A DNA stretch of 64,000 nucleotides, from positions 52,981 through 116,980 of the IMG/VR virus record IMGVR_UViG_3300018875_000003; one strand, 5' to 3'. The notes under the pieces were generated by a model. That model made no database searches. It was not told where the DNA came from and saw only the letters and a list, made by a program, of their open reading frames with translations. This DNA comes from a virus. Positions 8,298 to 49,562 of this stretch are shown piece after piece. A program made the translations under genes and the position numbers. The number at the start of each line of letters is the position of its first letter. Positions within the stretch are counted from its first letter, which is position 1.

Positions 8298-8326
8298 GGT
8301 CGCTAACGCTCCTGTGGCTTTGTGAA
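8298..8326 (+). promoter_or_regulatory. CTRACG-N7/8-GGCTWNNYGAW motif copy 1
   Basis: GGTCG CTAACG CTCCTGT GGCTT TG TGAA. Confidence 0.6.
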
Positions 8327-8412
8327 TGTGTGTCTTATGAGTATGGCTATATGCTAATCGGACATACGCGAATGACGATAGATATACTATGACTATATAG
8401 GGAGATGTATAT

Positions 8413-8709
8413 ATGAGTTATCCTGATTGGCAACCTAAGTTTGATTTCAATGACGATCTTGTTTGTATAGAGAGATACTTCGATAATGAGAATGTCGATG
8501 ATCTGGCTCCATCTATAGAGATGGTTGTTGGTAAAGGTATTACTCTAACGTTGATTCCTTCAGCTTTATTCCCTGCATATAGGGTGAACAATGCACAAGG
8601 TGAATGTATTGGTCATATTAGTCGTGAGACATCTCTTTATCTTGTTACTCTATATCCTCGTGCTATGAGTGATGGACAGATTAAGTATCTTCGTTCATTG
8701 CGTAAATAG
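8413..8709 (+). CDS. hypothetical protein
   Basis: RBS GGGAGA; 98-aa ORF. Confidence 0.65.
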   Translation: MSYPDWQPKFDFNDDLVCIERYFDNENVDDLAPSIEMVVGKGITLTLIPSALFPAYRVNNAQGECIGHISRETSLYLVTLYPRAMSDGQIKYLRSLRK

Positions 8710-8857
8710 CATATATGATGATGGCTATATAGGTTGTTTATGCTATATAGACTTTATATCGTTAGATATATGATTAATAGGATGGCGCTTTGCCTTTTTT
8801 TCTTTTGCCAATCCTTTGGATCGGCGCTAAAACACTATGCAATGGGGGTTCCATCAC

Positions 8858-9085
8858 ATGGAAGCATTCATCAGGTTCTACGCTAAAGTCAATCCAGGAC
8901 ACTGGGCTTTGGATATTCGTCATTCGAGTATAGTCGATTGGTCTATCACCGTTGGCTATAAGGCATCGCATCCGAAGTATGGCGAAAGCATTATTCATGT
9001 ACAGGGTTGGGATGTCGATCTGGCCTTTGCGAAAGCACAGGTTCAGCTGAAAGAATGGTTGACCGAACATAACGGCGGCTATTGA
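8858..9085 (+). CDS. hypothetical protein
   Basis: RBS GGGGGT before ATG 8858. Confidence 0.6.
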   Translation: MEAFIRFYAKVNPGHWALDIRHSSIVDWSITVGYKASHPKYGESIIHVQGWDVDLAFAKAQVQLKEWLTEHNGGY

Positions 9086-9110
9086 TTAACTATATAGGAG
9101 GATTCATCAT

Positions 9111-9395
9111 ATGAAGAAAACGATCGCCATGCGCCAGTCATCCGTATATGGTGCTATATCCAAGATGATTAATGCCATGTCTGGAGATTCTATTCAGTTT
9201 CAAACGGCAGTGAAGATGTATAAGCGATTTGCTACAGGCTTTGTTCTAAGAGAGAACGAGGTGGCTTTCTTTCTCCGCGAGCTGGTTGATGCTGGTCACT
9301 TGCACCTGGAGGTAAACGATCAAGGCAAAGAGATGTTGTCGCTCACTCCAGCGGGAGACGAATACCATACCATAAGCTTTGGTGATGACGAATGA
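9111..9395 (+). CDS. hypothetical protein, possible winged-helix
   Basis: RBS AGGAGG; LRELVDAGHL...LSLTPAG. Confidence 0.6.
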   Translation: MKKTIAMRQSSVYGAISKMINAMSGDSIQFQTAVKMYKRFATGFVLRENEVAFFLRELVDAGHLHLEVNDQGKEMLSLTPAGDEYHTISFGDDE

Positions 9396-9640
9396 ACGTT
9401 TACGATATTGGCATGCACTATGATGATATACTGCTGCGTATGAAGGATGTGCGCAGCTATATTCCTGTGCTTATGTCTGGATATAAGGCTCCGTATGATA
9501 TCGAGGACATTATCCGGGAGTATGCTGCTAATCCGATGTATGATATGTCTTTGGATGAGTTCCGCAGCCGGTTGAATCTATTATCGTCTATAGTGCGATT
9601 AGATTACGATAAGCTTGCGGCTTCATATGGGATGTCGTAA
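9392..9640 (+). CDS. hypothetical protein
   Basis: ATGA overlap with the upstream gene. Confidence 0.6.
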   Translation: MNVYDIGMHYDDILLRMKDVRSYIPVLMSGYKAPYDIEDIIREYAANPMYDMSLDEFRSRLNLLSSIVRLDYDKLAASYGMS

Positions 9641-9781
9641 TCGTAACGCGTTTCATTTTTTCTTTTGTCTATGTTGATCCAGCTGAATTGCCTCCTACTT
9701 TTTTCCGCACTGGTTGGCAGGCAGGATGGATGGCAGCAAAAGTGATTGATGTTGATTGATTCCAGAAAGGAGGTTCCCGCA

Positions 9782-9952
9782 ATGAGCACAAACTTTAAAG
9801 CTATATCGTTTGCTGAGTTTATGACGGATGTAATGGGTATAAGCGATAAGCAATACTATGAGATGGATGCCGATCAGCAGCGTAAGATTTTTGACCAGTG
9901 GCATTCGCTCACTCAGCTACAGTTTGATTTGTGGTCTTCTAAAGTTAATTGA
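9782..9952 (+). CDS. small hypothetical protein
   Basis: RBS AAAGGAGG. Confidence 0.6.
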   Translation: MSTNFKAISFAEFMTDVMGISDKQYYEMDADQQRKIFDQWHSLTQLQFDLWSSKVN

Positions 9953-9985
9953 TTGGCGTTACATTACGTATAGTGAGGTGGTATC

Positions 9986-10120
9986 ATGATTAAATCACTG
10001 GTTTCAATCATTCGAGGTGACAATGAGGACATAAGCACTGTCCACCTGTTCGCTTGGCATATTATTGGCGCCATGCTTGCTTCTGCTGTTGCACTTGCTG
10101 TCGGTCATACGTTTATATAG
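9986..10120 (+). CDS. small membrane peptide (44 aa)
   Basis: RBS GAGGTG; one hydrophobic segment. Confidence 0.5.
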   Translation: MIKSLVSIIRGDNEDISTVHLFAWHIIGAMLASAVALAVGHTFI

Positions 10121-10188
10121 CCGCCTGATGAGTCCCTGGCGTGGGACGAAACCAGAATGTCGTGAGATATGCTGGTCGCGGATTGCCG
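10121..10188 (+). ncRNA. hammerhead ribozyme, type I
   Basis: CCGC-CTGATGA-GTCCC/GGGAC-GAAA-CCAG...CTGG-TC|GCGG; all core nucleotides and three stems present. Confidence 0.92.
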
Positions 10189-10212
10189 CAGCTTATACAA
10201 GGAGGAATGTTT

Positions 10213-10548
10213 ATGCCATTAAAGCTATATACAGCTCAGTATGCTTATCGTGGTCCGGATCGTGTGGATACCACAGTGAAAAGCAGTGATGGTATCTTTG
10301 CGCCGACCTGGGATATTGTCATGGGTGTGAAGAAAGGTCGGATCACCGAGCAGCAGTATACGGATGAGTATTATCGTATGATGCGCGATTCATATACCCA
10401 GAACTATGACAAATGGATGGAGCTTCTATCCAGAGATGAGGCGACGATCGTATGCTTCTGTGCGTATGGCCAGTTCTGTCATCGTCATCTACTGAAAGAC
10501 ATGCTTGTTAAATGTGGCGCCACTTATATGGGCGAACGTGGAAGGTGA
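10213..10548 (+). CDS. DUF488-like protein
   Basis: FAPTWD...Y..EY...IVCFC...FCHRHLL. Confidence 0.65.
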   Translation: MPLKLYTAQYAYRGPDRVDTTVKSSDGIFAPTWDIVMGVKKGRITEQQYTDEYYRMMRDSYTQNYDKWMELLSRDEATIVCFCAYGQFCHRHLLKDMLVKCGATYMGERGR

Positions 10549-10552
10549 TATC

Positions 10553-10744
10553 ATGGAAATTACACACGAATATGTATCTGGAGAGATCAATAAGCTACTG
10601 TCGAAGTATGACTTCCCTATTTATGCGCTGCAGGATGTATCCAAGCGGCTGGGTGATTCTGATGACCCAAACTATGCAGCGCAGCAGCTTCGATATTTGC
10701 AGAACCTTGTTGGAGCTGGCTATGCTAAAATGAAGTCTAAATAA
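10553..10744 (+). CDS. hypothetical protein
   Basis: RBS AAGGTGA; starts MEITHEY. Confidence 0.6.
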   Translation: MEITHEYVSGEINKLLSKYDFPIYALQDVSKRLGDSDDPNYAAQQLRYLQNLVGAGYAKMKSK

Positions 10745-10761
10745 TCTTATCGGAGGTATAT

Positions 10762-11067
10762 ATGACTAAACAATCTAAAGCATTGAATGCACTCTGCGTT
10801 TTGTATCCTCATGCGCGCCCTGCTGCAGGTGAAGGATACAATATGATCCGTGCTGAGCGTTATGACAACCCTGTTGACTTTCAGAATCTTGTTACCTGTC
10901 TTCTTGCTGCGTTCCCCTCTTCCCTATTCGATCATGCAGATTATGTGGAGGTTAGATTCTCCGCCGACACGATCACAGTGTACACTGGCCACTTCCTGGT
11001 TGAGTCTGACGTATATAACGTTCGATTCCTCTATGAAGCTTCGTACCAGACAGACACTGACTCATGA
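10762..11067 (+). CDS. hypothetical protein
   Basis: RBS GGAGGT. Confidence 0.65.
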   Translation: MTKQSKALNALCVLYPHARPAAGEGYNMIRAERYDNPVDFQNLVTCLLAAFPSSLFDHADYVEVRFSADTITVYTGHFLVESDVYNVRFLYEASYQTDTDS

Positions 11068-11077
11068 GGTGTGCTTT

Positions 11078-11347
11078 ATGGAGCTGATGACTTACTATAT
11101 CGATAATGCTTATGTGACGCTGCCTGATATGATCCCTGGTGTCCGATATCAGTTCTTGTATCACCACGACGATCCAGATGCTCGCTATATTGCCGAATAT
11201 ATCGGTCGTGATGATGATAAATGGTATCATCGAATGTTGTTCCGTATTATATGGCGAGATGCTGATATACATCGTGAGCAGATGTCTCTGTTCACGAATA
11301 AAATCACTCATATCAAGCTACATGGTGGTGATGCCGCATGGAACTGA
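11078..11347 (+). CDS. hypothetical protein
   Basis: RBS GAGGTG; starts MELMTYY. Confidence 0.65.
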   Translation: MELMTYYIDNAYVTLPDMIPGVRYQFLYHHDDPDARYIAEYIGRDDDKWYHRMLFRIIWRDADIHREQMSLFTNKITHIKLHGGDAAWN

Positions 11348-11586
11348 TCAGTCGCTATTGTTTAACCAGAGGTATCGGCGGCGTAACTATCAAAGATCGA
11401 AGCTTTGGTTACGGAGATTATTTGCGCATCAGGCATGCGGATCTGACAGGCAGCTATGAAACGACAGGTACTCTTGCTCCCTCTATCGATGATCAATATA
11501 TCATTCTTATAGATGATGATGACGATGATATTCATATATGGCGTGGTGATATTAATTATGTTGAGGATCTGTGCAGCCTTTGCTGA
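11338..11586 (+). CDS. hypothetical protein
   Basis: RBS GGTGGTGA; starts MELISRY. Confidence 0.65.
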   Translation: MELISRYCLTRGIGGVTIKDRSFGYGDYLRIRHADLTGSYETTGTLAPSIDDQYIILIDDDDDDIHIWRGDINYVEDLCSLC

Positions 11587-11671
11587 ACAGGTTCTCTTTT
11601 TCTTTTGTCTACCCTTCGGGCAGACGCGATCGGCGGATGATGCTTCATGTATTCGAATGCAGCATACGAAT

Positions 11672-11700
11672 GGTCGCTAACGCTCCATCGGCTTGACGAT
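11672..11700 (+). promoter_or_regulatory. motif copy 2
   Basis: GGTCG CTAACG CTCCATC GGCTT GA CGAT. Confidence 0.6.
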
Positions 11701-11728
11701 GACTATTATCCTATTGGAGGTTTTATAT

Positions 11729-12121
11729 ATGACAACTCAACAAACGCAGGTAACTGAAGAACTCGTTGCAATGATGCTGGATGTCGCTCTGACTCATTAT
11801 CCGAATGCTCGTAAGGTATCCAGAAGCTATCTGCTGGATCAGCTGGAAGAGCGTGACGATTCCGGTCCGGATGAAACGAAAGAACAAGCGGTGCAGCGCA
11901 TCTTCGATTTCCTCGATAGCGAGTATCGTTATGACTTCAATGCTGCTGGCGATCTGATCTCTCCTCCACTCGTTAAACGCTCTCCAGCCGGCTATTATAT
12001 TGGACGCGACTATTATGATTTCGAATTAGGAAGCGAGATGCACTATGAACGTGAATCTGGCTACATGACAGAAGAAGCAGCCAATCGTGCATTTGCATCA
12101 GGTGTATGGTGGAGGAGTTAA
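11729..12121 (+). CDS. hypothetical phage protein
   Basis: RBS GGAGG; SPAGYYIG...RESGY. Confidence 0.65.
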   Translation: MTTQQTQVTEELVAMMLDVALTHYPNARKVSRSYLLDQLEERDDSGPDETKEQAVQRIFDFLDSEYRYDFNAAGDLISPPLVKRSPAGYYIGRDYYDFELGSEMHYERESGYMTEEAANRAFASGVWWRS

Positions 12122-12184
12122 TCCTCCTCCTTCACTTCCTTTAACACTTATCTCACTACATAAACTATTTAGGAGCTGATATTA

Positions 12185-12718
12185 ATGATTAAGTCTATTA
12201 AGAAGTATGTTTCTCAGGTGAAGATGGTTGCTCAGGGTATGATCGATATGCAGAATCCTTTCCGCACCAGCAAGATTGTGGAGATGAACCATTTTGGTGT
12301 ACAATGCAAAATGCTACATGACCCTGCCCTACTTCATAGCAAAGGATATATGGTTGCCGGCGCTATGCGTGTGATTATGGGCGACGTCGTTGAAGATATG
12401 ATTGTCGTTGATGATCACTTCTTTGAAATGGATGCTGCCCACCAGCTGGCTATATATTTTCATGAGTTTGGCCACATTCACCTGGAGCATTTGGAACGTC
12501 TCGCTTCAGGAGGAAAATACGCCAACATGAAGAATCTGTTTAAGCGTTCGGCTGCTGCTATTCATGGTGTGCAAGACATCGAACTTGAAGCGGACCAGTA
12601 TGCCGCAAGCAAGGTTGGCCCTGTCATCCTCTCTTCTGCCCTCGAAGCTGTTTCTGCCGTTGTCGGCCCTAAAAATAAGGAGCTGCAAAGACGTATTCGC
12701 ATTCTCCGCAACCAGTGA
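12185..12718 (+). CDS. zinc metallopeptidase (M48-like)
   Basis: HEFGH and ELEADQYA motifs. Confidence 0.7.
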   Translation: MIKSIKKYVSQVKMVAQGMIDMQNPFRTSKIVEMNHFGVQCKMLHDPALLHSKGYMVAGAMRVIMGDVVEDMIVVDDHFFEMDAAHQLAIYFHEFGHIHLEHLERLASGGKYANMKNLFKRSAAAIHGVQDIELEADQYAASKVGPVILSSALEAVSAVVGPKNKELQRRIRILRNQ

Positions 12719-12727
12719 GGTGTCCGT

Positions 12728-12970
12728 ATGGATAAGATCATTCAATCCCTGCACAATGATGCTCCCCTCCATTGCCATAAAACGATTGACTACAGCCAGG
12801 ATGAGCATGCTGATCAGGTTGATGATGCTGTCTATTGTGCCGGCGCCTTGGGATATATGGTAAAAGCGAAAGATATCAATCTCCCTATTCGTCTTGGCAT
12901 AATGTTTGATTTATTCCGTCCGGACGAGCTTCAGGATCTGGATGATCTCATCGATCCGAAAGAGGAGTGA
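12728..12970 (+). CDS. hypothetical protein
   Basis: RBS GAGGTG. Confidence 0.6.
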   Translation: MDKIIQSLHNDAPLHCHKTIDYSQDEHADQVDDAVYCAGALGYMVKAKDINLPIRLGIMFDLFRPDELQDLDDLIDPKEE

Positions 12971-12976
12971 TTTTAA

Positions 12977-13396
12977 TTGGAGATTCGCAATGGTTCCCCT
13001 GTTATTGGCCACCGTGTTGAGGTATACGTCAATCTGAATAAGAATGGGTTGTTCAGTATCCTTGACCGGCAGCCAAAGAGCCCCACGTATAACAAAGTTT
13101 TAGCGTATGCCGAGCGCGTTACATTACGAGAAGCCCGCTCCCGTATCAGTCAAAGCAAGTATGATTCTATTCAGAACAAGAAGCAGCGTGCTGTGTGTGC
13201 CATGTTTACTGGAACCCTGGTTGCTATCGATGAAGCAAAGCCTGCCGGACTTGATGTTGAGGTCCACTATAATCCTTACCGCGCCCGTGAATTTCACACG
13301 AATGACGGTCATGTCATTGAAGAAGCAGATTTGATTCATTTCGAGGATAAGCTGGGCTGGGTTTCCGATCCGGAAGCACCCATGCTGCTATTTTAA
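12977..13396 (+). CDS. hypothetical phage protein
   Basis: RBS GAGGAG; VYVNLNK...FS...YNPY. Confidence 0.65.
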   Translation: MEIRNGSPVIGHRVEVYVNLNKNGLFSILDRQPKSPTYNKVLAYAERVTLREARSRISQSKYDSIQNKKQRAVCAMFTGTLVAIDEAKPAGLDVEVHYNPYRAREFHTNDGHVIEEADLIHFEDKLGWVSDPEAPMLLF

Positions 13397-13414
13397 TTTC
13401 GGAGGTTATTTATT

Positions 13415-13648
13415 ATGCAAACAGCACTACACGAACAGGTTCGCCATGAAGAGATGGTTCCTGGTCATATGTATGAAATCGAAGATGATCGCGGCGGCAT
13501 CATCCAGGGTAATTATGATCAGCGTTCAGATTCTATGATTACGCTCAAAAATACGATGTATATTATGCCAAGCGGCTATCACATGCCTTATCCTTCTTGG
13601 TGTGTATCTATCCATCGCATTGTCAGTTGTAAGAAATTTCATTTTTAG
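13415..13648 (+). CDS. hypothetical protein
   Basis: RBS GGAGG. Confidence 0.6.
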   Translation: MQTALHEQVRHEEMVPGHMYEIEDDRGGIIQGNYDQRSDSMITLKNTMYIMPSGYHMPYPSWCVSIHRIVSCKKFHF

Positions 13649-13659
13649 GAGGATGCCAT

Positions 13660-13977
13660 ATGACTCAGCGTAAAGGCTTCAATGATTTCTTCACGTTCAC
13701 CCGAGATGATAAGTTTATTCAGAATAAGACCTATCTCATTCATCTGATGCAGCTGGTCGAGTCCATGGATGAAAACTGCGATATGTCCGTTACTTCCACC
13801 GGTAGGATCCTGATGCTCTTTTTCGAAGAAGATGGCATGTCTGCACACATCGATGTTAATTTGGACCACATCCTCACCTATATTGATCGGTTACTCAAGC
13901 TGCAAGCTCACACTGATTTCTTCACTACACAAGTTGACCGCGATAAGATATACGAATGCTTCACCATTAACGAATGA
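13660..13977 (+). CDS. hypothetical protein
   Basis: RBS AGGAGG. Confidence 0.6.
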   Translation: MTQRKGFNDFFTFTRDDKFIQNKTYLIHLMQLVESMDENCDMSVTSTGRILMLFFEEDGMSAHIDVNLDHILTYIDRLLKLQAHTDFFTTQVDRDKIYECFTINE

Positions 13978-14005
13978 AGGCTACCAATCGGTGGCCTTCT
14001 TTTTT
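13976..14005 (+). terminator. intrinsic terminator
   Basis: GAAGGCTACC / GGTGGCCTTC followed by a T-run. Confidence 0.75.
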
Positions 14006-15321: not shown

Positions 15322-15350
15322 GCAGCCTACGGCTGCAGTGGCTTTATGAT
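15322..15350 (+). promoter_or_regulatory. motif copy 3 (hairpin subtype)
   Basis: GCAGC CTACG GCTGCAGT GGCTT TA TGAT. Confidence 0.55.
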
Positions 15351-15369: not shown

Positions 15370-15468
15370 ATGCTTAAAGAACGTTTGGCATTTGTCGGAT
15401 TGGCCCTTGGTTCAATCGCCTTGTTTATCGCCGTTGTCTTCGGCGTTATGCTTATATTGGCATCGTAG
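15370..15468 (+). CDS. small hydrophobic peptide (32 aa)
   Basis: RBS GGGAGG; single TM segment. Confidence 0.55.
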   Translation: MLKERLAFVGLALGSIALFIAVVFGVMLILAS

Positions 15469-16888: not shown

Positions 16889-16920
16889 AGGTCTGCTCTT
16901 TCGAGGGCAGGCCTTTTTTT
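16889..16920 (+). terminator. intrinsic terminator
   Basis: AGGTCTGCTCT / AGGGCAGGCCT followed by a T-run. Confidence 0.75.
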
Positions 16921-17100: not shown

Positions 17101-17340
17101 ATGGAGAAATTTATCATCATCGATCGCAATGATCGACAGATTTTGCACGGTCCGCAGCACTTGCTGGTGGACACTTTAAAGGAGCTGGGTACGCATCCAG
17201 ACTTCTTTTACGACTACTTCAGCGGCTTGGATGATCAAGACTACCAGGAGCTGTACGACAGCACGGTGTCGGAGTTGTCCGATGAATTTAAAATTGTGGA
17301 GGTTAACGATGAACATTTATACGTCTGTGAGCGGTATTGA
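17101..17340 (+). CDS. hypothetical protein
   Basis: RBS AGGAGG. Confidence 0.6.
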   Translation: MEKFIIIDRNDRQILHGPQHLLVDTLKELGTHPDFFYDYFSGLDDQDYQELYDSTVSELSDEFKIVEVNDEHLYVCERY

Positions 17341-17596
17341 TCTACAGGATCGAATCTACTTTCTCCAGAAGACATTTCTACCGATTCAACTCAATGTGGA
17401 TTTGATTCGGGCGGACACCCTGCATCTGCAGGATAAGGATGACGAGGCTGCCGAGCTGGTCGGCAAGATCGAGGAAGAATGCGCAAAGCTGGGCATTAAG
17501 ATCTATCAGCCGATGCCGATCAGCATGAAGTCCGGCGAAGCTTATCGGCAGAACGCTGTCCAGTGTTACGAGGCGCAAACGAAAATTGACGCATAA
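17309..17596 (+). CDS. hypothetical protein
   Basis: RBS GGAGG. Confidence 0.6.
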   Translation: MNIYTSVSGIDLQDRIYFLQKTFLPIQLNVDLIRADTLHLQDKDDEAAELVGKIEEECAKLGIKIYQPMPISMKSGEAYRQNAVQCYEAQTKIDA

Positions 17597-17663
17597 AGTC
17601 GGCTTGGCGACTATAAATAGGCCTTTGGCCAAGCGCGGGCTCCCGGGTCGTCGGGAGTATGGC
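17597..17663 (+). ncRNA. pistol ribozyme candidate
   Basis: P1 AGTCG/CGACT; loop GCTTGG pairs with CCAAGC; ATAAATAG linker; P2 GCC/GGC; GCG; P3 GCTCCCG/CGGGAGT. Confidence 0.75.
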
Positions 17664-17694
17664 AACACATACTATTCCAAACGAGGTGCTTACT

Positions 17695-17907: not shown

Positions 17908-18272
17908 TTCGTTTCCCTATGCCTGTAACCACCCCATGTATAGGGTTTTAAATGGGTTTTAATCTTTTCCAAAATTGGACAGACTCTGCCCCAAGGCTGC
18001 TGTATATGTATCTTACTTCGTAAGCTCATTCTAAAGAAGGATCAGACGATTCTGTGCGACAGTTTCCTTCTTGTTTCGGAAGCTGCCGTTTTTGCTCCTC
18101 CTTTTTATTTTATCATTCTACTTCCAAAGAAAGCTGACGATAAATACCAGCGTTACTTCTTTCGATTCCTTCGTTAGCTTTCTCTATATATAAAGATTAC
18201 CGGAAAACATGGGGTAAATACACACAGTCACAGAATGTTCACAATTTGTTCACAATTAGCTTATAATTAACT

Positions 18273-20160: not shown

Positions 20161-20190
20161 GCAGTCTAACGACTGCACAGGCTTCTTGAT
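20161..20190 (+). promoter_or_regulatory. motif copy 4 (hairpin subtype)
   Basis: GCAGT CTAACG ACTGCACA GGCTT CT TGAT. Confidence 0.6.
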
Positions 20191-20554: not shown

Positions 20555-20694
20555 TTCATATATCATATGAAATATTAAATACGAAATACGATCTTGGTCT
20601 ATATCATACGATATAGGCCTTTTTCGTATGTAATTCTTCATATCATATGATATATGAAATATGTTATACGATATAGATCATATATCATACGATT
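20552..20694. repeat. heptad array 3, parS-like
   Basis: About 18 TA-initiated heptads (TATATCA, TATGAAA, TACGAAA, TACGATA, TATGATA). Confidence 0.75.
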
Positions 20695-21543: not shown

Positions 21544-21794
21544 AACGTTTTATGGATGTTGTCGGTCCTGCTATGGACTTCATTGCAGATCGGATGTGGC
21601 TCTGCTTGTTGACCGCGGCTACCCTGGCTGTCGCCGCTTGTCTTCTGCAGATGTTTGGATTGATCCTTATACTTATCGTCGCCATGATGTTTGGTCTTTA
21701 TGTTCGATGGAGTCTTCAACGTGATTACTTAATAAGCGCAGCAATGCAGAAGGGTGAAGTGCAATGGGAAAACAAATCAAAACGACGTGCTTAA
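21540..21794 (+). CDS. membrane protein
   Basis: RBS AAGGAG; hydrophobic core. Confidence 0.6.
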   Translation: MKRFMDVVGPAMDFIADRMWLCLLTAATLAVAACLLQMFGLILILIVAMMFGLYVRWSLQRDYLISAAMQKGEVQWENKSKRRA

Positions 21795-22225
21795 AATGTA
21801 AATCGGAGGTTACGCTCGATTTCGGGGATGCAAACTACTCTGAAGCGCTGAAGCTTGCTGATCAGATCGATAAGCGCCCGATGGAATGCCCTGGCTTCCA
21901 TGTTGAGGTTGGCGGCTGGAAAAAGTACTGGCAGATCGTCAACGCGATTGATTCTGCCTACAGCGAAGAAGATAAAGATGCTTGTCGGGATATTGTAAGG
22001 CGTATCATTGTCAAACTACCCGATAGTTCTACTCCTGAAAAAGAACATGAGTTCAAAACGGAACAGGAGACGCATCAATTCGTAACTGGTCTTATCGATG
22101 GCGGAATGAGCGATCTTACTTCTCTGATTGTAACGCATTTCAATGCACTGAAAGAATATATTGGCGAGTACAAAGGCTCTGCCAAGAAAATACTGACTTA
22201 TCTGGACGACAGCTATCTGTATTAG
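21764..22225 (+). CDS. hypothetical protein (CxxC...C..H)
   Basis: RBS AAGGGTGA. Confidence 0.6.
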   Translation: MGKQIKTTCLKCKSEVTLDFGDANYSEALKLADQIDKRPMECPGFHVEVGGWKKYWQIVNAIDSAYSEEDKDACRDIVRRIIVKLPDSSTPEKEHEFKTEQETHQFVTGLIDGGMSDLTSLIVTHFNALKEYIGEYKGSAKKILTYLDDSYLY

Positions 22226-22252
22226 TCGCTGACGCTCCCCGGGCTATATGAA
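22224..22252 (+). promoter_or_regulatory. motif copy 5
   Basis: AGTCG CTGACG CTCCCCG GGCTA TA TGAA. Confidence 0.6.
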
Positions 22253-31429: not shown

Positions 31430-31605
31430 GGAATGTACTGGTTTTTCCAGACGGCACCGAGCAGGATTTTATGTATCCTCCGGACCGCGATGTCACTGTC
31501 GGAGAGAAGTTGGTTTTGCAAATGACAGACAATTCGGAACACCACTTTGTTGTGGCTGAAATCGTGCATGAAGCAAAACGGATTCTCTACAAGCTGTCGT
31601 ATTAG
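31426..31605 (+). CDS. small hypothetical protein
   Basis: ATGA overlap. Confidence 0.5.
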   Translation: MRNVLVFPDGTEQDFMYPPDRDVTVGEKLVLQMTDNSEHHFVVAEIVHEAKRILYKLSY

Positions 31606-31633
31606 GTCGCTGACGCTCCGTTGGCTTCTTGAA
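31605..31633 (+). promoter_or_regulatory. motif copy 6
   Basis: GGTCG CTGACG CTCCGTT GGCTT CT TGAA. Confidence 0.6.
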
Positions 31634-34933: not shown

Positions 34934-34962
34934 TTGACATGTTTTGATAGATTCTTTATAAT
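34934..34962 (+). promoter_or_regulatory. consensus sigA promoter
   Basis: TTGACA-17 nt-TATAAT. Confidence 0.85.
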
Positions 34963-37543: not shown

Positions 37544-38092
37544 ATGTCCGAATGCGAGCATGCTGACAACTGCGCCAACCTGGGGAAGTCCTGCCGAAAG
37601 TGTTTCGGATACAATATGTTCCGCCCCAAGAAAGAACAGCGCCGCCTGGGTCAACAATCCGGGGCCAAAAAGAGCAAGAAGGAAGGCATGGCGTTTGAGG
37701 AGCGTGGAACCAAGAAATACAACCAGGCGGTTTCTCAGGCAAAGGATGTAGCCAAGCGGCAGATCGCATCAGGAGCCTTATATTACGCGCTGGGCGATAT
37801 GATTACAGAAGAAGCCCTCACTGCAGCCCTTGCGGAATATAAGGAGCGCGGCACGTTAAGCTCGACCGGTGCCAAGCAAATTACGATTAAGAAGGAATGG
37901 CTGGATAAGCTGGAGGAGGAGGCAAAACTCATGAATCGTGAGTTTTACTTTCTCCCCTTCACCTTCAAAGATCAGGATCAAGATTATGTCGTGATGAATT
38001 ACGATCGGATGCTTGCCTATGTGCAGATCATCCAGGTACTTCAAGAACAGGTTCAGTATTACCGCAGCAAACTCGAAGACCAAGCCGACTGA
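37544..38092 (+). CDS. PD-(D/E)XK nuclease, Holliday-junction-resolvase-like
   Basis: G.AFEE, ASGA, GD, AEYK, IKKEWLDKL. Confidence 0.65.
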   Translation: MSECEHADNCANLGKSCRKCFGYNMFRPKKEQRRLGQQSGAKKSKKEGMAFEERGTKKYNQAVSQAKDVAKRQIASGALYYALGDMITEEALTAALAEYKERGTLSSTGAKQITIKKEWLDKLEEEAKLMNREFYFLPFTFKDQDQDYVVMNYDRMLAYVQIIQVLQEQVQYYRSKLEDQAD

Positions 38093-38113
38093 CGCCGGCA
38101 AGGGCTTTACGAA
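38084..38113 (+). promoter_or_regulatory. motif copy 7 (hairpin subtype)
   Basis: GCCGA CTGACG CCGGCAAG GGCTT TA CGAA. Confidence 0.6.
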
Positions 38114-38131
38114 AACGAAAGGGTGATTGGT

Positions 38132-38857
38132 ATGACAAACTTGCTTAATATGGCTCATATGGTTGAGCATGAAGATATGATGCTTGAGCTGGACGCCATG
38201 CTGGAAGAGTACAAGGAGAATGGCGGTGTTGTCCGAGAGTTTAACGATCTGGACATTCGTCGTATGGTTATTCGCCGTAAGTATCTGACGCAAGAAAGAG
38301 ACAGCCTCAAGGAAATGAAAGATGCCGTTGTCGATCAGTGGAATCAACGCATCAAAAGCAAAGATAATCAGATTGAGCAGATCAATGAGATCATTTACAA
38401 CTATGCTCTTCAGCGCGGCGGCAGCGTCGTTTTGGATGTTGCTACAGTCAGCACGCGGACCAATAAACATAAAGTGGAGATCACCGACCTGGATGCACTG
38501 ACTACTCTGATTGAGACTCGGGAAGACAAGGATAAATTCCTCAAGAAACCCGAGTACGACCAAACAGCAATCAAAGCGTACTTTACTGGTTTATTGGATA
38601 CTTCGATTGAAGGTATCGAGCTTAAACGCAAGGCTGAGCTGGACGCACTGGACGCGAAGTATAACGAAGAAGTAAAGGAAATCAAAAAGCCGGCTGATAA
38701 GAAGATCATCCAGGTGAAGTATGCGGAGCTCAAGAAAGAGGTCCATAAGGAAAAGGATGCGCTTATCGAGAAAACAATCGAAGAGTTCAAACAATGGATT
38801 CCAGACTGCGTATCGTATGTTCCTTCCAGCAAATCCTTGTCTATTCGCATGAACTGA
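38132..38857 (+). CDS. Gam-like / Gp157-like host-nuclease inhibitor
   Basis: Coiled coil then SVVLDVATVSTR...FLKKPEYDQTAIK. Confidence 0.5.
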   Translation: MTNLLNMAHMVEHEDMMLELDAMLEEYKENGGVVREFNDLDIRRMVIRRKYLTQERDSLKEMKDAVVDQWNQRIKSKDNQIEQINEIIYNYALQRGGSVVLDVATVSTRTNKHKVEITDLDALTTLIETREDKDKFLKKPEYDQTAIKAYFTGLLDTSIEGIELKRKAELDALDAKYNEEVKEIKKPADKKIIQVKYAELKKEVHKEKDALIEKTIEEFKQWIPDCVSYVPSSKSLSIRMN

Positions 38858-38861
38858 ATAT

Positions 38862-38893
38862 AAAGGCGCTACGATCGATGTAGCGCCTTTTTT
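38862..38893 (+). terminator. intrinsic terminator
   Basis: AAAGGCGCTAC / GTAGCGCCTTT followed by a T-run. Confidence 0.8.
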
Positions 38894-43937: not shown

Positions 43938-43938
43938 C

Positions 43939-44214: not shown

Positions 44215-44530
44215 TTTTGTTACCTATGCTTCGCTGTCTCTTCTTTTTAGCATACTCATTGCGGTCGCGAAGATACTTCCTCGCGATCCGCAGTATGATA
44301 AAAAGCATAAACGCGGAACATTCATCACTGTAATTATGTTCATTTCAAATATCGTGTATACCGCAGCATTCGGTTGGAACGAGGTAGCTCAATCTGCTAC
44401 GGAATGGACACTGGATATTATCAATGCCATTGGCATAATGATCGGTCTACGTTTGATGTTCGCCGGCGTTATGCTTAAAGGCAAAACGAAGGAGAACAAT
44501 CGTGACCGAACAACAGAAGAAAACGACTAG
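44201..44530 (+). CDS. membrane protein
   Basis: Three hydrophobic segments. Confidence 0.6.
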   Translation: MQVNDFVTYASLSLLFSILIAVAKILPRDPQYDKKHKRGTFITVIMFISNIVYTAAFGWNEVAQSATEWTLDIINAIGIMIGLRLMFAGVMLKGKTKENNRDRTTEEND

Positions 44531-46085
44531 ACGTACTACAAAGAAAGTTGCCGAGCAGCCGGAGTTTCAGCTGACCGCGCCTGATCTGTCTCCATTCGTA
44601 ACGAATCCGGACGGAAATGTATATGCAATCACCAATCTGCCGGAAGAGTTTATCGCCGTGCTGTTTGCCTGGGTGAGTCGTTCACCGAAGTCATTCAAGG
44701 AGCATCTGCAGCAAGCGATTCAAGATGGGTTAATCGATGCGGCGGACGTGAATGCCGCTGGTTTTGAAAAGCTGTCAGAGAAAGCCAAAGCATTCCATGA
44801 GAAATGGACGGTTGCCTATGGCCATTCCTCTGTCGCTGAGCATGCTGTATCGCATGTCGGTATCGAGAAGGTGTCCAGATTGGCCTCTGCGGAGCTGGAG
44901 CTGTCCAACACCTTCTACTCCATTACCGAGTACTCGCAGCGCTACCAGAAGCCGCAGCGCGGTGACTGGCACAATCCATTGCCACAGTCGATCCCGAATC
45001 CGAATGGTATCACTCGTGATATGGTTCCGAATCCGCTTTGGCAGGAGTACGAAGACTTTATGAACGAATGCTATGATGTATTCGAGCAGCTGATCGACGG
45101 CGTATACAAACACCTGAAGGAAAAGGATAAAGACTTATTCCATCCTTCATCTGGTTTGTCGGAAGCGAAGCGCGAGAGCGATCTGATGAAGCTTGCCTTC
45201 GAAGATGCTCGCTACGTGCTGCCGATGGCTATGTATACGCAGCTTGGCATGACTGCAAACGGTCGCAGTTGGCGCGATGGCATTGCCGAGATGGGCGCAA
45301 GCCGTTATCCGGAAGTGAAGCAGCTGGCTGATGACCTGAAAACGGAGATCACCAAGATTCTGCCGACTCTGCTCAAGCATGCGACACCTTCTCAATATAA
45401 GGTGAACAGCAAGCAGCGCACGGAATGGTTGATGGCGGATCAGCCCGTTGCAGACTACGCGGTGAATAGCCAGGTTGTCCTGCTGGATGGGCCAGACCCA
45501 ACGCATGCGATCAATTCGGTTATTGCCGGCGCAATCTCTGAAGTAACAGGTATTCCTTATACGGAAGCTTACAGTCGCGCCCGTGTCATGGAAGACAAAA
45601 CGGGTTTCCTGCAGGAGATCCTGTTCGAAATAGGCAACCATGACGCGCCGCCCGAATATTTCCGTCAGGTAGATTTCAAATTCGACCTGCTGGTTTCCGA
45701 AGCCAACTGGCATCAGTTGCTGCGTCATAATCGGAAGACCGACTTTGTATTCAGTCAGCCTTCTCCTGATCATGGCGTGACCGTGCCGCCGCGCATTATC
45801 GAAGCTGGGCTGCAGGGGCTGCTGTTCGATCTGGCTGAGAAAGCAGAGCAGCTGTTCAAGAAGCTGGCTTCTGAGAAGGAGACCGAAGCTGCGGCGCCGT
45901 ACATCATTCTGAATGCGTTCAGGCGCCGCGTTATTGCTCACTTCGATCTGTGGGAGGCTTACCATCTGATTAACCTCAGAACGAGCGAGGAAGCCCAGTG
46001 GGATATTCGCCAAACGTTCGAGGAAGTATATCGCCAGCTGTTCCAGCTGTATCCGTTTTTAATCGGTTCAGCAAAAAGACGATAG
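44502..46085 (+). CDS. thyX: FAD-dependent thymidylate synthase, two-domain type
   Basis: YGHSSVAEHA, SQRY, EDARYVLP, HQLLRH, LRTSEEAQWDIR. Confidence 0.85.
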   Translation: MTEQQKKTTRRTTKKVAEQPEFQLTAPDLSPFVTNPDGNVYAITNLPEEFIAVLFAWVSRSPKSFKEHLQQAIQDGLIDAADVNAAGFEKLSEKAKAFHEKWTVAYGHSSVAEHAVSHVGIEKVSRLASAELELSNTFYSITEYSQRYQKPQRGDWHNPLPQSIPNPNGITRDMVPNPLWQEYEDFMNECYDVFEQLIDGVYKHLKEKDKDLFHPSSGLSEAKRESDLMKLAFEDARYVLPMAMYTQLGMTANGRSWRDGIAEMGASRYPEVKQLADDLKTEITKILPTLLKHATPSQYKVNSKQRTEWLMADQPVADYAVNSQVVLLDGPDPTHAINSVIAGAISEVTGIPYTEAYSRARVMEDKTGFLQEILFEIGNHDAPPEYFRQVDFKFDLLVSEANWHQLLRHNRKTDFVFSQPSPDHGVTVPPRIIEAGLQGLLFDLAEKAEQLFKKLASEKETEAAAPYIILNAFRRRVIAHFDLWEAYHLINLRTSEEAQWDIRQTFEEVYRQLFQLYPFLIGSAKRR

Positions 46086-46152
46086 CATGTAAACATCCTT
46101 TATGCTAAAATAGTAATGCGTTACATTTTCGTAAAAAGGATGTGAAACAACA

Positions 46153-46362
46153 ATGGCAAATACGAAAAAGATGGCTGAAGTTTTCGAGGAAGTTCTGAAA
46201 AAGTATGTCGGTGCAGAGAAGAGCTATGTAGGCACTATCGCTGGTGGCGGTAATGATTATAAACGCAATCTTCAAATCACGGATGAACATGCAAACACGT
46301 TCCGCAGACGCTTCAACGAAGCGATGGCAGAAGGCGAACCAGCAGTGGAGCCGACTCCATAA
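46153..46362 (+). CDS. small hypothetical protein
   Basis: Upstream TG-TAAAAT promoter with operator at 46112-46125. Confidence 0.6.
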   Translation: MANTKKMAEVFEEVLKKYVGAEKSYVGTIAGGGNDYKRNLQITDEHANTFRRRFNEAMAEGEPAVEPTP

Positions 46363-46382
46363 TTCAGCATACGATCGATCTG

Positions 46383-46408
46383 GAAAGCCGCATAATTGCG
46401 GCTTTCTT
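46383..46408 (+). terminator. intrinsic terminator
   Basis: GAAAGCCGC / GCGGCTTTC. Confidence 0.6.
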
Positions 46409-46457
46409 ACATAAAGGGAATCTTTATGATTTTATATTCACAACAGGAGGGTCATAG

Positions 46458-48446
46458 ATGGCTATTGAGGAGAGAGAAATTAAAAACGTGGTATCGATGG
46501 AAAAGGTAAGGGAGCTGCTTGACGAGTTGAATCCGGAGCAGCGTGTTGCAGCAGAGGCTATCTATGGCCCCGTCCTGGTTCTCGCAGGTGCCGGCAGCGG
46601 TAAAACTAAAACGCTGACGTATCGAATCGCTAACATGTTGGCGCAGGGTGCGAAGCCATCCGAAATCTTTGTGGCCACGTTTACGAACAAAGCCGCCAAG
46701 GAAATGAAAGAGCGTATCGCGAAGGCAGTCGGTGAAGAGACCGTTCGTGATCTCTGGATGGGGACGTTTCACTCCCTGTGCGTTCGCATTCTGCGCAAGC
46801 ATGGGCATCTGCTCGGTTATGAGAGCAACTTTACGATCATGGATGCCGGCGACTCGCTGGACCTGATCAAGCGTATTTATAAAATGCACAATGTCGAGGA
46901 AGGAACAAAGCCAGGTTTAGCTATGCACTATATGGACAATGCTAAGAATAACCTGTTTACGCCGGACTACTGCATGCACGAAGAAGCAGAGACAGCTAGT
47001 GACCGGATGTGTTCTCTGGTTTACCGCGACTTTCAGATGATGGCGAAGGAAATGAATGCCATGGACTTCGGTGATCTCATTATGAATGTCGTTACATTGT
47101 TGGAAGAACATCCAGATGCTCGTGAGTACTGGCAGACCCGGTTTAAATTCGTTTTGTCGGACGAATATCAGGATGCCAACCATGCTCAGTATCACCTGCT
47201 TCGGCTGCTGGCATTCCCACATAATAATATCTTTGTCGTGGGTGATCCCCAGCAATCCATTTATAAATTCCGGGGTGCTGTAGTAAACCTGATTCTCAGC
47301 TTCGAATCACAGTATTTCCCTTGCACAACGGTCCGGCTGTTTAAAAATTATCGATCGAACCATGTTATCGTTCGGGCTGGCAATGAGCTGATGAAGCAGA
47401 ACAGTCATGTTCGACTGGAACTGCAGGCGCACAACCCAGAGATGAACGTGCATCCGATCTTGATTATGAAAACGCAGAATGAGCAAACGGAAGCTGCATT
47501 TATCTCGTATCAGATTCAGAAAATGGTCAAAGCCGGTACGCATTCTTACGGCGACTTTGCGATCTTGTATCGCACCAATGATCAGTCTGCCCCGTTCGAG
47601 CAAATGTTTATGCACAACATGATTCCGTACAAGGTAGTGGGCGGCACCGGCTTTTTCCAGCGGGAAGAAATCAAGGATGTTGTCGCTTATCTGAAGTCGA
47701 TCGTCAATCGTAAAGACGATGGAGCCATCACTCGAATTATCAATAAGCCATCTCGCGGCATCGGTGACACAACCGTAAACCATATCGTAGAATACGCCAA
47801 CAACAATAAAGTTAGCGTAGCCCGCGCGATGAAGAACGTCGATGATATCCCAACGATCAAGAAGGGTCCACGCGGCAGAGTACGCGATTTCCTTGGTATG
47901 CTGGATCACTTCGATTCCATGACTCATCTGGATATCCGCAGGTATGTCCATTATGTGCTGGAGCAAAGCGGCTACATGGCGATGTGGGCCGGAAAGAAAG
48001 ATAAAGAAGCCGAGGAGAGAGTAGACAATATCAACGAGTTTCTTCGTCTTGTCGAGCGATATAAAGAAGAAAATCCAGATAAAACGTTGACGGATTTTAT
48101 GCAAGAAATCTCCCTGCTTATGGACTTTGATAACAACGAAAAGGATAACGCTGTCCGGATGATGTCCATCCACGGCAGTAAAGGATTGGAGTTCCCGGTA
48201 GTCTTCGGTGTTGGGATGAACGAAGGGTTGTTTCCTTCCTGGAGAAGCTTTAATCCAGAGGACGTTGAAGAAGAAAGACGTCTGGCTTACGTTCTTGTTA
48301 CACGAGCGGAAAATCAGATTATTTTAACGACAACCCGCGAACGAACCAACTTCAAAGGAGGCAAGACGGCACAGGATCCGTCCCGCTTCCTGGATGAGCT
48401 GCCAGAAGAATTAATTTTCCATTCCGAAATTAAACCAAAAAGTTAG
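46458..48446 (+). CDS. pcrA: UvrD/PcrA SF1 helicase
   Basis: AGAGSGKT, TFTNKAA, DEYQD, VGDPQQSIY, NYRS, KGLEF, EERRLAYV. Confidence 0.93.
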   Translation: MAIEEREIKNVVSMEKVRELLDELNPEQRVAAEAIYGPVLVLAGAGSGKTKTLTYRIANMLAQGAKPSEIFVATFTNKAAKEMKERIAKAVGEETVRDLWMGTFHSLCVRILRKHGHLLGYESNFTIMDAGDSLDLIKRIYKMHNVEEGTKPGLAMHYMDNAKNNLFTPDYCMHEEAETASDRMCSLVYRDFQMMAKEMNAMDFGDLIMNVVTLLEEHPDAREYWQTRFKFVLSDEYQDANHAQYHLLRLLAFPHNNIFVVGDPQQSIYKFRGAVVNLILSFESQYFPCTTVRLFKNYRSNHVIVRAGNELMKQNSHVRLELQAHNPEMNVHPILIMKTQNEQTEAAFISYQIQKMVKAGTHSYGDFAILYRTNDQSAPFEQMFMHNMIPYKVVGGTGFFQREEIKDVVAYLKSIVNRKDDGAITRIINKPSRGIGDTTVNHIVEYANNNKVSVARAMKNVDDIPTIKKGPRGRVRDFLGMLDHFDSMTHLDIRRYVHYVLEQSGYMAMWAGKKDKEAEERVDNINEFLRLVERYKEENPDKTLTDFMQEISLLMDFDNNEKDNAVRMMSIHGSKGLEFPVVFGVGMNEGLFPSWRSFNPEDVEEERRLAYVLVTRAENQIILTTTRERTNFKGGKTAQDPSRFLDELPEELIFHSEIKPKS

Positions 48447-48533
48447 CATCCGTTGATACTTTTCGTTTATAATGCAAGTGGGGGAAAGCCCTCTACGGGG
48501 CTCACAATAAACGAAACGGGAAGGAAGAACAAT

Positions 48534-49532
48534 ATGAGCGCTGCTCCACAACGAAAGGTCGATCGCGACGAACTGTTCGAATATATTAAAACCCATATGG
48601 ATGAAGTCGGAAATATTGCGATTTCACCATCTGCATTAGCAAAGGAGTTCAATGTCGCCACGGCAACTATGACTCATCATTTGGGGGTATTAACCAACCA
48701 AGGAAAATTGGTGCTTACCGATATGGTTGGTCCTCAAAAGAAGAAGGTTTACCGGCTTGGCGCAGCGGGTCTTCCTAAGCAGGCGAAGTTGATTAATCCA
48801 GAAGAAAACCAAGATTTGATTGCTCAACTCAGACAGAATCTTCGCAATTATCTGCCATCTGGAACAGGGCAATCTGCTCAAAATAACGAGATAAAGAAAG
48901 AGCCTGATGTTGTTGAAGAGCCGCCTGCACCGCAGCCAGAGCAAGAAAAGGATCATACGGCAGATACTCAGCAGCAGGAAGCTCCGCAGCAAGAAGAGGT
49001 TCAGGAGCAATCGTCATCTTCTCCGCTGGATGATAAAGAGTTTCAACAGGCGATCATCGAAAGAGAAAAGTCGCTTGACGACGAAATACGTGATTATGAA
49101 GCCAGAAGAAAGTCATCTTCAGCTGAGACGATCTTGACGAAAGATGACCGGGAGATTCTATCAATTGCCTCTGAAAGCTTGCTTCAGTTTCAAATCTTCT
49201 TCAAGGATTTGACGGATCAGCTTTCTACTGTGGAGGATAAGAGGTTTATCCAGTCCCTCTTGGATGAAAGAAATAGGAATCTTGAGGAAATCCAAAACTT
49301 ACAGAGCCAGGTGACAACGCTGAGTCAAGCGGTCAATCAAATTACCGATCAAAAAGGTAAAGATAAAGAATCCGAACAGCGTGCGAAAGATATTTACCAG
49401 GCTCTGCTCTATACCATTGATACATTTGTCGAACAGCCTGCTCATGCGATGTACCTGAATCGAACAGAGTTCCGCAAGGACATAGGCGATAAAATAAAAG
49501 AGCTTTTTCTTTTATCCATGCGACAGAATTAG
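48534..49532 (+). CDS. HTH plus coiled-coil protein
   Basis: SALAKEFNVATATMTHHL. Confidence 0.7.
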   Translation: MSAAPQRKVDRDELFEYIKTHMDEVGNIAISPSALAKEFNVATATMTHHLGVLTNQGKLVLTDMVGPQKKKVYRLGAAGLPKQAKLINPEENQDLIAQLRQNLRNYLPSGTGQSAQNNEIKKEPDVVEEPPAPQPEQEKDHTADTQQQEAPQQEEVQEQSSSSPLDDKEFQQAIIEREKSLDDEIRDYEARRKSSSAETILTKDDREILSIASESLLQFQIFFKDLTDQLSTVEDKRFIQSLLDERNRNLEEIQNLQSQVTTLSQAVNQITDQKGKDKESEQRAKDIYQALLYTIDTFVEQPAHAMYLNRTEFRKDIGDKIKELFLLSMRQN

Positions 49533-49562
49533 GCCGTCTGACGACGGCAAAGGCTTTTTGAA
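49533..49562 (+). promoter_or_regulatory. motif copy 8 (hairpin subtype)
   Basis: GCCGT CTGACG ACGGCAAA GGCTT TT TGAA. Confidence 0.6.

Follow-up and report, generated by a model that had tools for sequence, protein, structure and literature searches.

Co-oriented hairpin-and-box motifs downstream of an RdRP-fold RNA polymerase gene as candidate phage-specific promoters of a putative Paenibacillus jumbo phage-plasmid

The window analyzed here is a 64,000-nt stretch of viral DNA, bases 52981-116980 of the 116,980-bp IMG/VR record IMGVR_UViG_3300018875_000003 (hereafter G000), which is rated 59% complete. Structural genes occupy the minus strand up to approximately position 2576; from position 4025 onward, nearly all genes lie on the plus strand and form an arm that encodes SNF2/DEAD helicases, RecA, an AAA ATPase, ThyX, a UvrD-type helicase, and DnaG. 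This arm also contains the gene for an RNA polymerase (RNAP) with the fold of RNA-dependent RNA polymerases (RdRPs) and, downstream of it, eight copies of a short motif with a C-TRAC-G core followed by N3-GGCTT-NN-YGAW. The position, strand bias, covariation, and recurrence of this motif suggest that it may be a phage-specific promoter read by the polymerase encoded in the same element.

The polymerase gene is located as follows.

4127-7687, plus strand: RNA polymerase gene encoding a 1186-aa single-chain protein of the RdRP family (QDE-1/RDR2 fold), a homologue of gp99 of phage 0305phi8-36

A longer open reading frame (ORF) of this gene begins at GTG 4025 (1220 aa), and the metal-binding DxDGD loop is present as GADNDGDE at residues 709-716 of that longer product. 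Residues D675, D677, G678, and D679 were invariant in all 10 sequences of a family alignment (A1). An AlphaFold 2 (AF2) model of the polymerase, with a predicted local distance difference test (pLDDT) of 69.8, was compared with the PDB using Foldseek and matched QDE-1 (2j7n, E 4.5e-18; 5fsw, E 2.1e-17) and plant RDR2 (7w82, E 1.6e-15; 7rqs, E 8.2e-15); the next-best match had an E value of 0.14, and the template-modeling (TM) scores of the matches were only 0.31-0.46. The similarity to gp99 was significant in BLASTP (E 7e-11, across GGADNDGDE/GGADTDGDK and QGWEIDRAK/QGWSIDFAK) and in hhalign (98.9%, E 2.8e-17, 679 columns). The window polymerase itself had no match in Pfam (0 families, including PF05183, at E <= 0.01 with hmmscan), PHROG, or NCBIfam, and precomputed PF05183 matches were present on 4 of the 10 listed polymerase homologues. 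The family is small, with 101 cluster representatives at E <= 1e-3 among 1.84 billion proteins. A search of genome contigs returned no relatives, and no phage of the INPHARED collection was matched by tblastn at database-scaled thresholds, though the pairwise comparison with gp99 was significant. The conserved loop and the predicted fold indicate that the element encodes a single-chain two-barrel RNAP. The initial annotation had called it YonO-like, which holds for the two-barrel single-chain architecture (fold and invariant DNDGD); by sequence, however, the protein is far closer to gp99 and to eukaryotic-type RdRPs than to YonO, and no similarity to YonO was detected in searches that did not test the pair directly.

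Relatives of the polymerase gene sit on 200-260-kb "plasmids" of Paenibacillus and Bacillus and on IMG/VR contigs of approximately 200 kb. Since capsid, terminase, and ParM genes occur in the same order on the polymerase-bearing plasmids, these are jumbo phage-plasmids.

The eight motif copies fall into two subtypes: subtype A follows the pattern GTCGCTRACGCTCC-N3-GGCT, and subtype B places the core within a six-position stem. We aligned 18 sites from G000 and its relative G001 (alignment A2) and built a covariance model (R1) from these two genomes only. In G000, R1 returned exactly the following eight sites, which are all seeds and all on the plus strand.

8298-8326, plus strand: site 1, subtype A (GGTCGC-TAAC-GCTCC, TGT, GGCTTTGTGAA), 86 nt before ATG 8413; R1 E 7.5e-10
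11672-11700, plus strand: site 2, subtype A, 28 nt before ATG 11729; R1 E 4.0e-8
15322-15350, plus strand: site 3, subtype B (GCAGCC-TAC-GGCTGC, 3-nt loop), 19 nt before ATG 15370; R1 E 7.3e-7
20161-20190, plus strand: site 4, subtype B (GCAGTC-TAAC-GACTGC), 34 nt before ATG 20225; R1 E 1.8e-10
22224-22252, plus strand: site 5, subtype A, 24 nt before ATG 22277; R1 E 2.3e-7
31605-31633, plus strand: site 6, subtype A, 33 nt before ATG 31667 of a weakly SSB-like protein; R1 E 3.7e-10
38084-38113, plus strand: site 7, subtype B (GCCGAC-TGAC-GCCGGC, one A.C mismatch), 18 nt before ATG 38132; R1 E 5.1e-10
49533-49562, plus strand: site 8, subtype B (GCCGTC-TGAC-GACGGC), 22 nt before GTG 49585 of DnaG primase; R1 E 1.2e-11

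The initial annotation had placed the eight cores at 8303, 11677, 15327, 20166, 22229, 31610, 38089, and 49538, and each was found there on the plus strand. Its subtype A pattern was borne out at four sites (8303, 11677, 22229, and 31610), the three subtype B stems that it quoted (GCAGTC/GACTGC, GCAGCC/GGCTGC, and GCCGTC/GACGGC) were correct, and the fourth subtype B site is that at 38089. The distances from motif end to start codon listed above also agree with its figures of approximately 20-36 nt, and 88 nt for the first site. As for the downstream genes, DnaG was confirmed, the ssb assignment proved weak (NCBIfam E 1.6e-4, 21.6 bits versus a cut-off of 161), and our searches gave no support for a Gam-like gene.

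The motif is confined to one strand and to intergenic gaps. In the 116,980-bp record, the pattern CTRACG-N7/8-GGCTWNNYGAW occurred seven times on the forward strand and never on the reverse strand, with no match to the reversed control pattern on either; when the CTACG loop of site 15327 was allowed, the counts were eight and zero. The chance expectation from 300 first-order Markov simulations of the record was a mean of 0.01 matches on both strands together, with a maximum of one. The 3' box alone (GGCTWNNYGAW) was far less specific, with 12 forward and 6 reverse matches. Each of the eight sites occupies the gap separating a stop codon from the ribosome-binding site (RBS) that follows, and the nearest upstream ORF ends at -9 to +15 nt relative to the start of the hairpin: at site 5, the hairpin region begins 1 nt past the TAG stop codon of the ORF at 21764-22225, and the loop of site 7 contains the TGA stop codon of the upstream ORF. 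Site 1, the first copy past the polymerase gene, is found 616 nt downstream of that gene's stop codon, and the minus-strand structural genes (53 kb) contain no sites. The 12 nt past the motif are 71% A+T, versus 53% for the window. A scan of IMG/VR found the subtype A core in 32 stretches, approximately 23 of which represent one conserved coding region of 60%-G+C phages; the full motif was present only in the two stretches from G001. Of five other IMG/VR candidate records, four were searched with R1, and none of these four contained multiple motif copies.

The apparent absence of sigma-A boxes reported in the initial annotation was also confirmed. The numbers of sigma-70-like matches (32, 31, and 29) were not above those in shuffled sequences (37.5, 29.5, and 26.6), no such match coincided with or overlapped any site, and the sites lacked -35/-10 hexamers 16-18 nt apart. 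A sigma-A or extended -10 promoter had been considered by eye, given the resemblance of CTGACG to TTGACA and the TG before A/T-rich hexamers, and was rejected for its poor match to TATAAT and for its misfitting geometry at site 15327. Elsewhere on the plus strand, near-consensus sigma-A-type promoters precede genes at 34934-34962 (12/12), 18238-18267 (11/12), and 53032-53061 (11/12). They are interspersed among the hairpin sites, in agreement with the mix of promoter types described for 0305phi8-36 in the available text of Hardies et al. (2007; PMC2147016).

Two of the motif copies begin one-gene units that end at terminator-like hairpins.

20596-20619, plus strand: terminator-like hairpin, 10 bp followed by TTTTT, closing the one-gene unit begun by site 4
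38862-38890, plus strand: terminator-like hairpin, 12 bp followed by TTTGTT, closing the one-gene unit begun by site 7

These motif-gene-terminator units could be explained by a promoter as well as by a read-through signal. Strong plus-strand terminators also stand at 13976-13999 and 16889-16914, so that the genes 3' of them need new promoters. Site 3 is the sole recognizable signal before the start codon at 15370. The motif itself was rejected as an intrinsic terminator: none of the eight motif hairpins was called terminator-like on the plus strand, and there is no T run directly after the stem, the gap between the stem and the first T being 3 nt plus GGC. A related explanation is a DNA-level signal apart from initiation, for example one that acts on single-stranded DNA in priming or replication, or a terminator or insulator joined to a conserved spacer. 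It would accommodate the fact that the hairpin begins immediately past the stop codon of the upstream gene, and also the T-rich tract that follows the hairpin in 0305phi8-36 and in the versions of G001 and the P. urinalis plasmid NZ_CP118109.1 (W01). We nevertheless hold it to be very improbable, since the boxes in the window often lack a T run (GGCTTGACGAT, GGCTATATGAA), the fixed loops and the fixed TGAW/TGTA are not features of terminators, and a replication signal has no reason to be confined to intergenic gaps before an RBS.

The stem of subtype B covaries among its four sites, three of which pair perfectly; the loop is 4 nt long at seven of the eight sites and 3 nt long at the other. In A2, 76.2% of the cells paired, compared with 62.0 +/- 3.0% in shuffles (0 of 500 as high), and pairing was 24-47% when the partners were slid. 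Double changes were present at four of the six stem pairs in A2, and at one orthologous site a compensatory change distinguishes G001 (GAAGCC/GGCTTC) from W01 (GGAGCC/GGCTCC). When folded as DNA, the perfect-stem sites gave -5.9 to -7.0 kcal/mol (z -1.6 to -2.8). The hairpin was the minimum free energy (MFE) structure at site 4 (-5.9 kcal/mol, z -2.8) and site 8 (-7.0 kcal/mol, z -2.6), and that of site 3 had an energy of -6.4 to -6.6 kcal/mol. As far as can be judged from sequence comparison, the covariation of the stem supports a real hairpin for subtype B.

Stem covariation suits RNA as well as DNA, and the perfect-stem sites fold well as RNA (-10 to -10.9 kcal/mol). The hairpin and box might instead act within long polycistronic RNAs by binding a phage or host protein, with a role in antitermination, in processing or stabilization, or in translation. 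The terminator-like hairpins after two motif-led genes could be used by a read-through signal, the arm does process RNA (a Pistol ribozyme lies at 17597-17664), and the box GGCTTCTTGAAAAT presumably resembles the boxA of Bacillus ribosomal RNA leaders. Even so, we consider a signal at the RNA level unlikely. Known nut or put sites number one or two per operon, unlike the 8-12 copies per arm found here, each just before an RBS. The A.C and C.C mismatches in some stems are not wobble pairs, the stems are much too short for RNase III, and the variable distance to the start codon (18-86 nt) argues against a role in translation. Moreover, the genes behind the two strong terminators would still need promoters, and the sites are devoid of sigma-A-type boxes.

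The motif recurs in close relatives of the element. In G001, R1 returned the 10 seeds plus three weak matches (E 0.018-0.78), at least one of which was box-only. In W01, which was outside the seed alignment, R1 detected 10 sites (E <= 1.2e-5). Every one of them is on the polymerase strand, at a distance of 0.6-56 kb downstream of the gene, and falls in a gap annotated as intergenic; the gaps preceding the DnaG-type and dnaN genes are among these.

In more distant relatives the letters of the motif change. R1 found nothing convincing in W02-W04, G002-G006, or 0305phi8-36, or generally in relatives whose polymerase is 29-43% identical; the single match in 0305phi8-36 had an E value of 0.096 and lay away from the core sites. 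De novo repeat finding without a structural filter revealed lineage-specific motif families in the same place of the distant relatives. The family in the P. rhizovicinus plasmid (W02) consists of stem-C-TGTC/TATC-G-stem followed by ATTC-N4-YGAW, with seven forward and no reverse copies in 43.6 kb. A model (R2) made from 10 sites of the C-TRTC-G / ATTC-N4-YGAW type gave 12 matches on the whole P. rhizovicinus plasmid (12/12 on the polymerase strand and downstream of the gene, 5 new) and 7 matches on G005 (7/7 on the polymerase strand, 5 new). The B. thuringiensis plasmid pd carries C-TCC-G hairpins followed by WGT-N3-TGAW (eight forward, six of these with the box, and one reverse), and two or three GCCCC-ATCC-GGGGC sites were found in B. 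paralicheniformis pBP1 (weak evidence), three short-stem sites in G004, and one site in G003. The value of 90% pairing obtained for such variant sites is inflated, since the site lists of W02, B. thuringiensis, and G003-G005 were filtered by pairing.

The core 10-mer of 0305phi8-36, CGTTCGCACG, occurs 19 times on the sense strand of the right arm and never on the antisense strand in the 218,948-bp genome. At the three positions next to the core on either side, pairing was seen in 18/18, 18/18, and 16/18 sites; each position shows three to six base combinations, three or four of which are Watson-Crick pair types. N-TTWTGTA then follows. The design shared by all these families is a free but paired stem with fixed closing bases and loop, 4-10 nt, and then a T-rich box whose last letters are TGAW or TGTA, after which come A/T-rich DNA (in the window, the 71% A+T mentioned above) and an RBS. 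A variant of this design is carried by every more distant relative with the RNAP gene whose downstream DNA was available over at least a few kb. The initial annotation had proposed checking the co-occurrence of motif and RNAP gene, and a hairpin-plus-box variant was present in 10 of the 12 polymerase-bearing records examined: G000, G001, W01, W02, W03, G003 (1 site), G004 (3 short-stem sites), G005, W04 (2-3 sites, weak), and 0305phi8-36. No variant was found in G006 or in G002, in which only approximately 1 kb downstream of the gene is covered. The sense/antisense counts of co-oriented copies were 8/0 in G000, 10/0 in W01, 12/0 in W02, 7/0 in G005, and 19/0 in 0305phi8-36. This comparison shows that 0305phi8-36 is no orphan and belongs with the plasmid-borne jumbo prophages of Bacillus and Paenibacillus.

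A second candidate for the polymerase that reads the motif is encoded among the structural genes.

G000:C1:6207-12977 (outside the window), minus strand: 2256-aa tail-module protein with an invariant DSDGD and a weak RNase_T match

Homologues of this protein were found in all eight closer relatives that gave a result (W01-W04, G001, G003, G004, and G005), and DSDGD was invariant in 5/5 homologues. Thermus phage P23-45 uses a tape-measure-fused virion RNAP for its pre-early genes, according to the parts of the report available (PMC10770324), and the available text of Hardies et al. (2007; PMC2147016) did not exclude host RNAP for the 0305phi8-36 sites either. The motif might thus be a promoter read by another enzyme, that is, the 2256-aa protein or a host RNAP redirected by a phage factor, which we regard as distinctly unlikely. 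The 2256-aa protein could not be confirmed as a polymerase and stands as a candidate: its only Pfam match, to RNase_T, was weak and below the cut-off (E 7.7e-4), searches of the PDB by sequence and by profile were negative, and an AF2 model from a five-row alignment had a pLDDT of 40. In 0305phi8-36, tblastn at E <= 10 detected no homologue of the protein (the tape-measure protein gp146 of this phage gave E 0.12). Because that phage has hairpin sites but no detectable 2256-aa homologue, the hairpin design appears tied to the gp99-type enzyme. With regard to host RNAP, a Sigma70_r2 domain was lacking in the 5/5 complete relatives, and the sites have no -35/-10 geometry, the box of site 15327 ending 19 nt from the ATG.

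On balance we favor, with modest confidence, the joint reading that the source element is a Paenibacillus jumbo phage-plasmid of approximately 210 kb and that the motif, which belongs to its non-structural ("middle") arm, is a phage-specific promoter read by the element's own RdRP-fold (QDE-1/gp99-like) RNAP. The initial annotation had proposed a promoter for the encoded RNAP, and the observations that accord with it are that the motif is phage-specific, strand-specific, and intergenic, that it starts just past the RNAP gene, and that it recurs in relatives; the promoter role itself is how we interpret them. In such a scheme, the arm's first large gene, which encodes the polymerase, would be expressed first from another signal. 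Its product would recognize a small intrastrand DNA hairpin with the loop T-R-A-C, a closing C-G pair, and a stem of free sequence provided that it is paired, and also the box GGCTT-NN-YGAW, in which the YGAW end begins 19-20 nt from the loop center. The polymerase would then melt the A/T-rich DNA past the box, and RNA would start at or just after YGAW, with resulting 5' untranslated regions of approximately 18-35 nt that carry the RBS.

Several points weigh against this reading. A search of sequencing runs listed no RNA run that contains this DNA, and the only DNA run containing it in full is probably that of the source sample. The four subtype A sites have no stable hairpin (DNA MFE -0.9 to -3.9 kcal/mol, z -0.95 to +1.2) and retain just 2+2 G-C pairs (GG..CC and GC..GC) flanking an internal loop. 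The claim that a stable hairpin is required is weakened because these sites do not fold, and subtype A may be a protein-stabilized or purely sequence-read variant; the hairpin-based signal that the initial annotation considered possible is supported for subtype B. A.C or C.C mismatches also occur at site 38089 and at the dnaG site of G001/W01. The W02 and B. thuringiensis site sets were partly picked by a pairing filter, sequence-only repeat finding having found them first. Any factor encoded by the phage would be expected to track phylogeny just as the polymerase does. All close relatives carry the 2256-aa protein too, so that the separation of the two enzymes rests on one genome, 0305phi8-36, in which the motif differs in sequence. 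In addition, gp66 of a crAss phage, the closest experimentally studied phage enzyme of the two-barrel RdRP-type fold, yields early transcripts without a common upstream motif, according to the available text (bioRxiv 2020.03.07.982082). YonO transcribes late genes from one start, as described in the available portion of PMC5467207, whereas the window motif sits in a replication arm.

Other features of the region are recorded here for completeness. The palindrome CTATATAG has eight copies in the 117-kb record, all within window positions 3800-9097 (5.3 kb around the polymerase gene); two of these lie in the highly conserved non-coding leader 5' of the polymerase gene and two overlap an RBS (8393 and 9090). 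The palindrome may serve as an operator or represent a second, pre-early class of promoter. The leader, approximately 400 nt long (window 3520-4126), is near-identical in G000, G001, and W01, the proteins being only 80% identical, and that of G000 has an insertion of approximately 130 nt immediately 5' of the RBS. On the minus strand at 8753-8770, directly after the stop codon of the minus-strand ORF at 8774-9070, lies a perfect hairpin (TATATC-TAAC-GATATA) with the same loop as the motif. It is followed by CTATATAG copies, not by a GGCTT box, and is not reported by R1. In G001 (reverse-complement coordinates 152462-152540) and W01 (62123-62200), a motif copy is immediately followed by a terminator-like hairpin, GGACTG...CAGTCC and then TTTTT, which contains CTATATAG; this arrangement suggests a very short transcript or an attenuator. 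The Pistol self-cleaving ribozyme of the window (plus strand) matched Rfam RF02679 over its full length (49.1 bits versus a gathering score of 34.5) and starts 1 base past the stop codon of the ORF at 17231-17596; it alone passed the Rfam gathering score, and no hammerhead ribozyme did. In the P. rhizovicinus plasmid, four tandem repeats of approximately 42 nt, spaced 43-85 nt apart, lie at 38044-38266 between a minus-strand MerR gene and a GGDEF gene and look like iterons or operators.

The closest known counterpart of the window motif is found in 0305phi8-36. According to the available text of Hardies et al. (2007; Virol J 4:97, PMC2147016), that genome has 14 "phage-specific promoter candidates" that are alike over 21 bp, and they were suggested to be middle promoters for orf99; that text does not describe the motif as a hairpin, stem, palindrome, or dyad. 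We infer that the 18-19 sites found here are these 14 candidates. The two elements have homologous polymerases of similar size (1218 aa in the phage and 1186 aa in the window), whose genes lie close to the start of a long non-structural arm that includes similar genes (RecA, a PcrA/UvrD helicase, and DnaG). In both, many co-oriented copies lie in short non-coding gaps, one of them directly before dnaG (record position 144279 in the phage and 49538 in the window), and the covarying stem, the fixed loop and closing pairs, and the T-rich box are shared. The sequences differ, however, with CGT-TCGC-ACG followed by N-TTWTGTA in 0305phi8-36 and C-TRAC-G followed by N3-GGCTT-NN-YGAW in the window, and another phage copy lies approximately 105 nt before the polymerase gene itself, where the window has none.

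YonO of SPbeta is likewise a single-chain two-barrel phage RNAP of Bacillus. It uses a single start upstream of yonK, and in the available text its promoter sequence was left undetermined by the authors (Forrest et al. 2017, PMC5467207). It serves one late operon, whereas the window has many sites in a replication arm. In the 1681-bp yonN-yonK gap of SPbeta we found no comparable repeated motif, and the published start site could not be placed on the gap. Thermus phage P23-45 and the crAss-like phage phi14:2 also encode non-canonical two-barrel polymerases with their own signals. The former has two motif classes without hairpins (PMC10770324, available text); gp66 of the latter and QDE-1-type enzymes prefer single-stranded DNA templates (bioRxiv 2020.03.07.982082, available text). 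No hairpin has been reported for either phage in these texts, the word itself being absent from the available gp66 preprint, and we found no description of hairpin promoters for the RdRP-fold phage polymerase family in the portions of the literature searched.

Work on promoter recognition by single-chain two-barrel phage polymerases has so far yielded no defined promoter for YonO, no motif for gp66, and just the 2007 logo for 0305phi8-36. From at least five lineages, our comparison yields explicit, testable sequences; it also predicts a hairpin whose stem changes compensate each other and a start of transcription within a narrow interval. As a tentative generalization, somewhat short of probable in our judgment, these sites may constitute the first definable promoter class for RdRP-fold polymerases, in which an extruded DNA hairpin is read, transcription starts approximately 14-20 nt downstream at a TGWW box, and the letters of loop and box co-evolve with the polymerase across Bacillus and Paenibacillus jumbo phages and phage-plasmids of approximately 200-260 kb. 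The eukaryotic members of the polymerase family make triggers of RNA interference (RNAi), and how the family finds its templates is at stake; if the promoter reading is true, the system would be a prokaryotic model for the way in which eukaryotic RNAi polymerases engage single-stranded DNA. Self-contained polymerase-promoter pairs would also be of interest as orthogonal expression parts.

The mechanism proposed here is most readily compared with that of the N4 virion RNAP. This T7-like single-subunit enzyme uses hairpin promoters with a 5-7-bp stem of free sequence and a 3-nt loop, extruded from supercoiled DNA. The window motif resembles them in its small putative DNA hairpin with a free stem, in its fixed loop and closing bases, in the fixed short distance to the presumed start, and in being the proposed target of a sigma-independent phage polymerase. 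It differs in that its loops are 4 nt long at seven of the eight sites and that the window polymerase has a two-barrel RdRP fold unrelated to the T7-like enzyme of N4. If the motif is indeed read by this polymerase, its hairpin-promoter mechanism would be convergent with that of the N4 virion RNAP.

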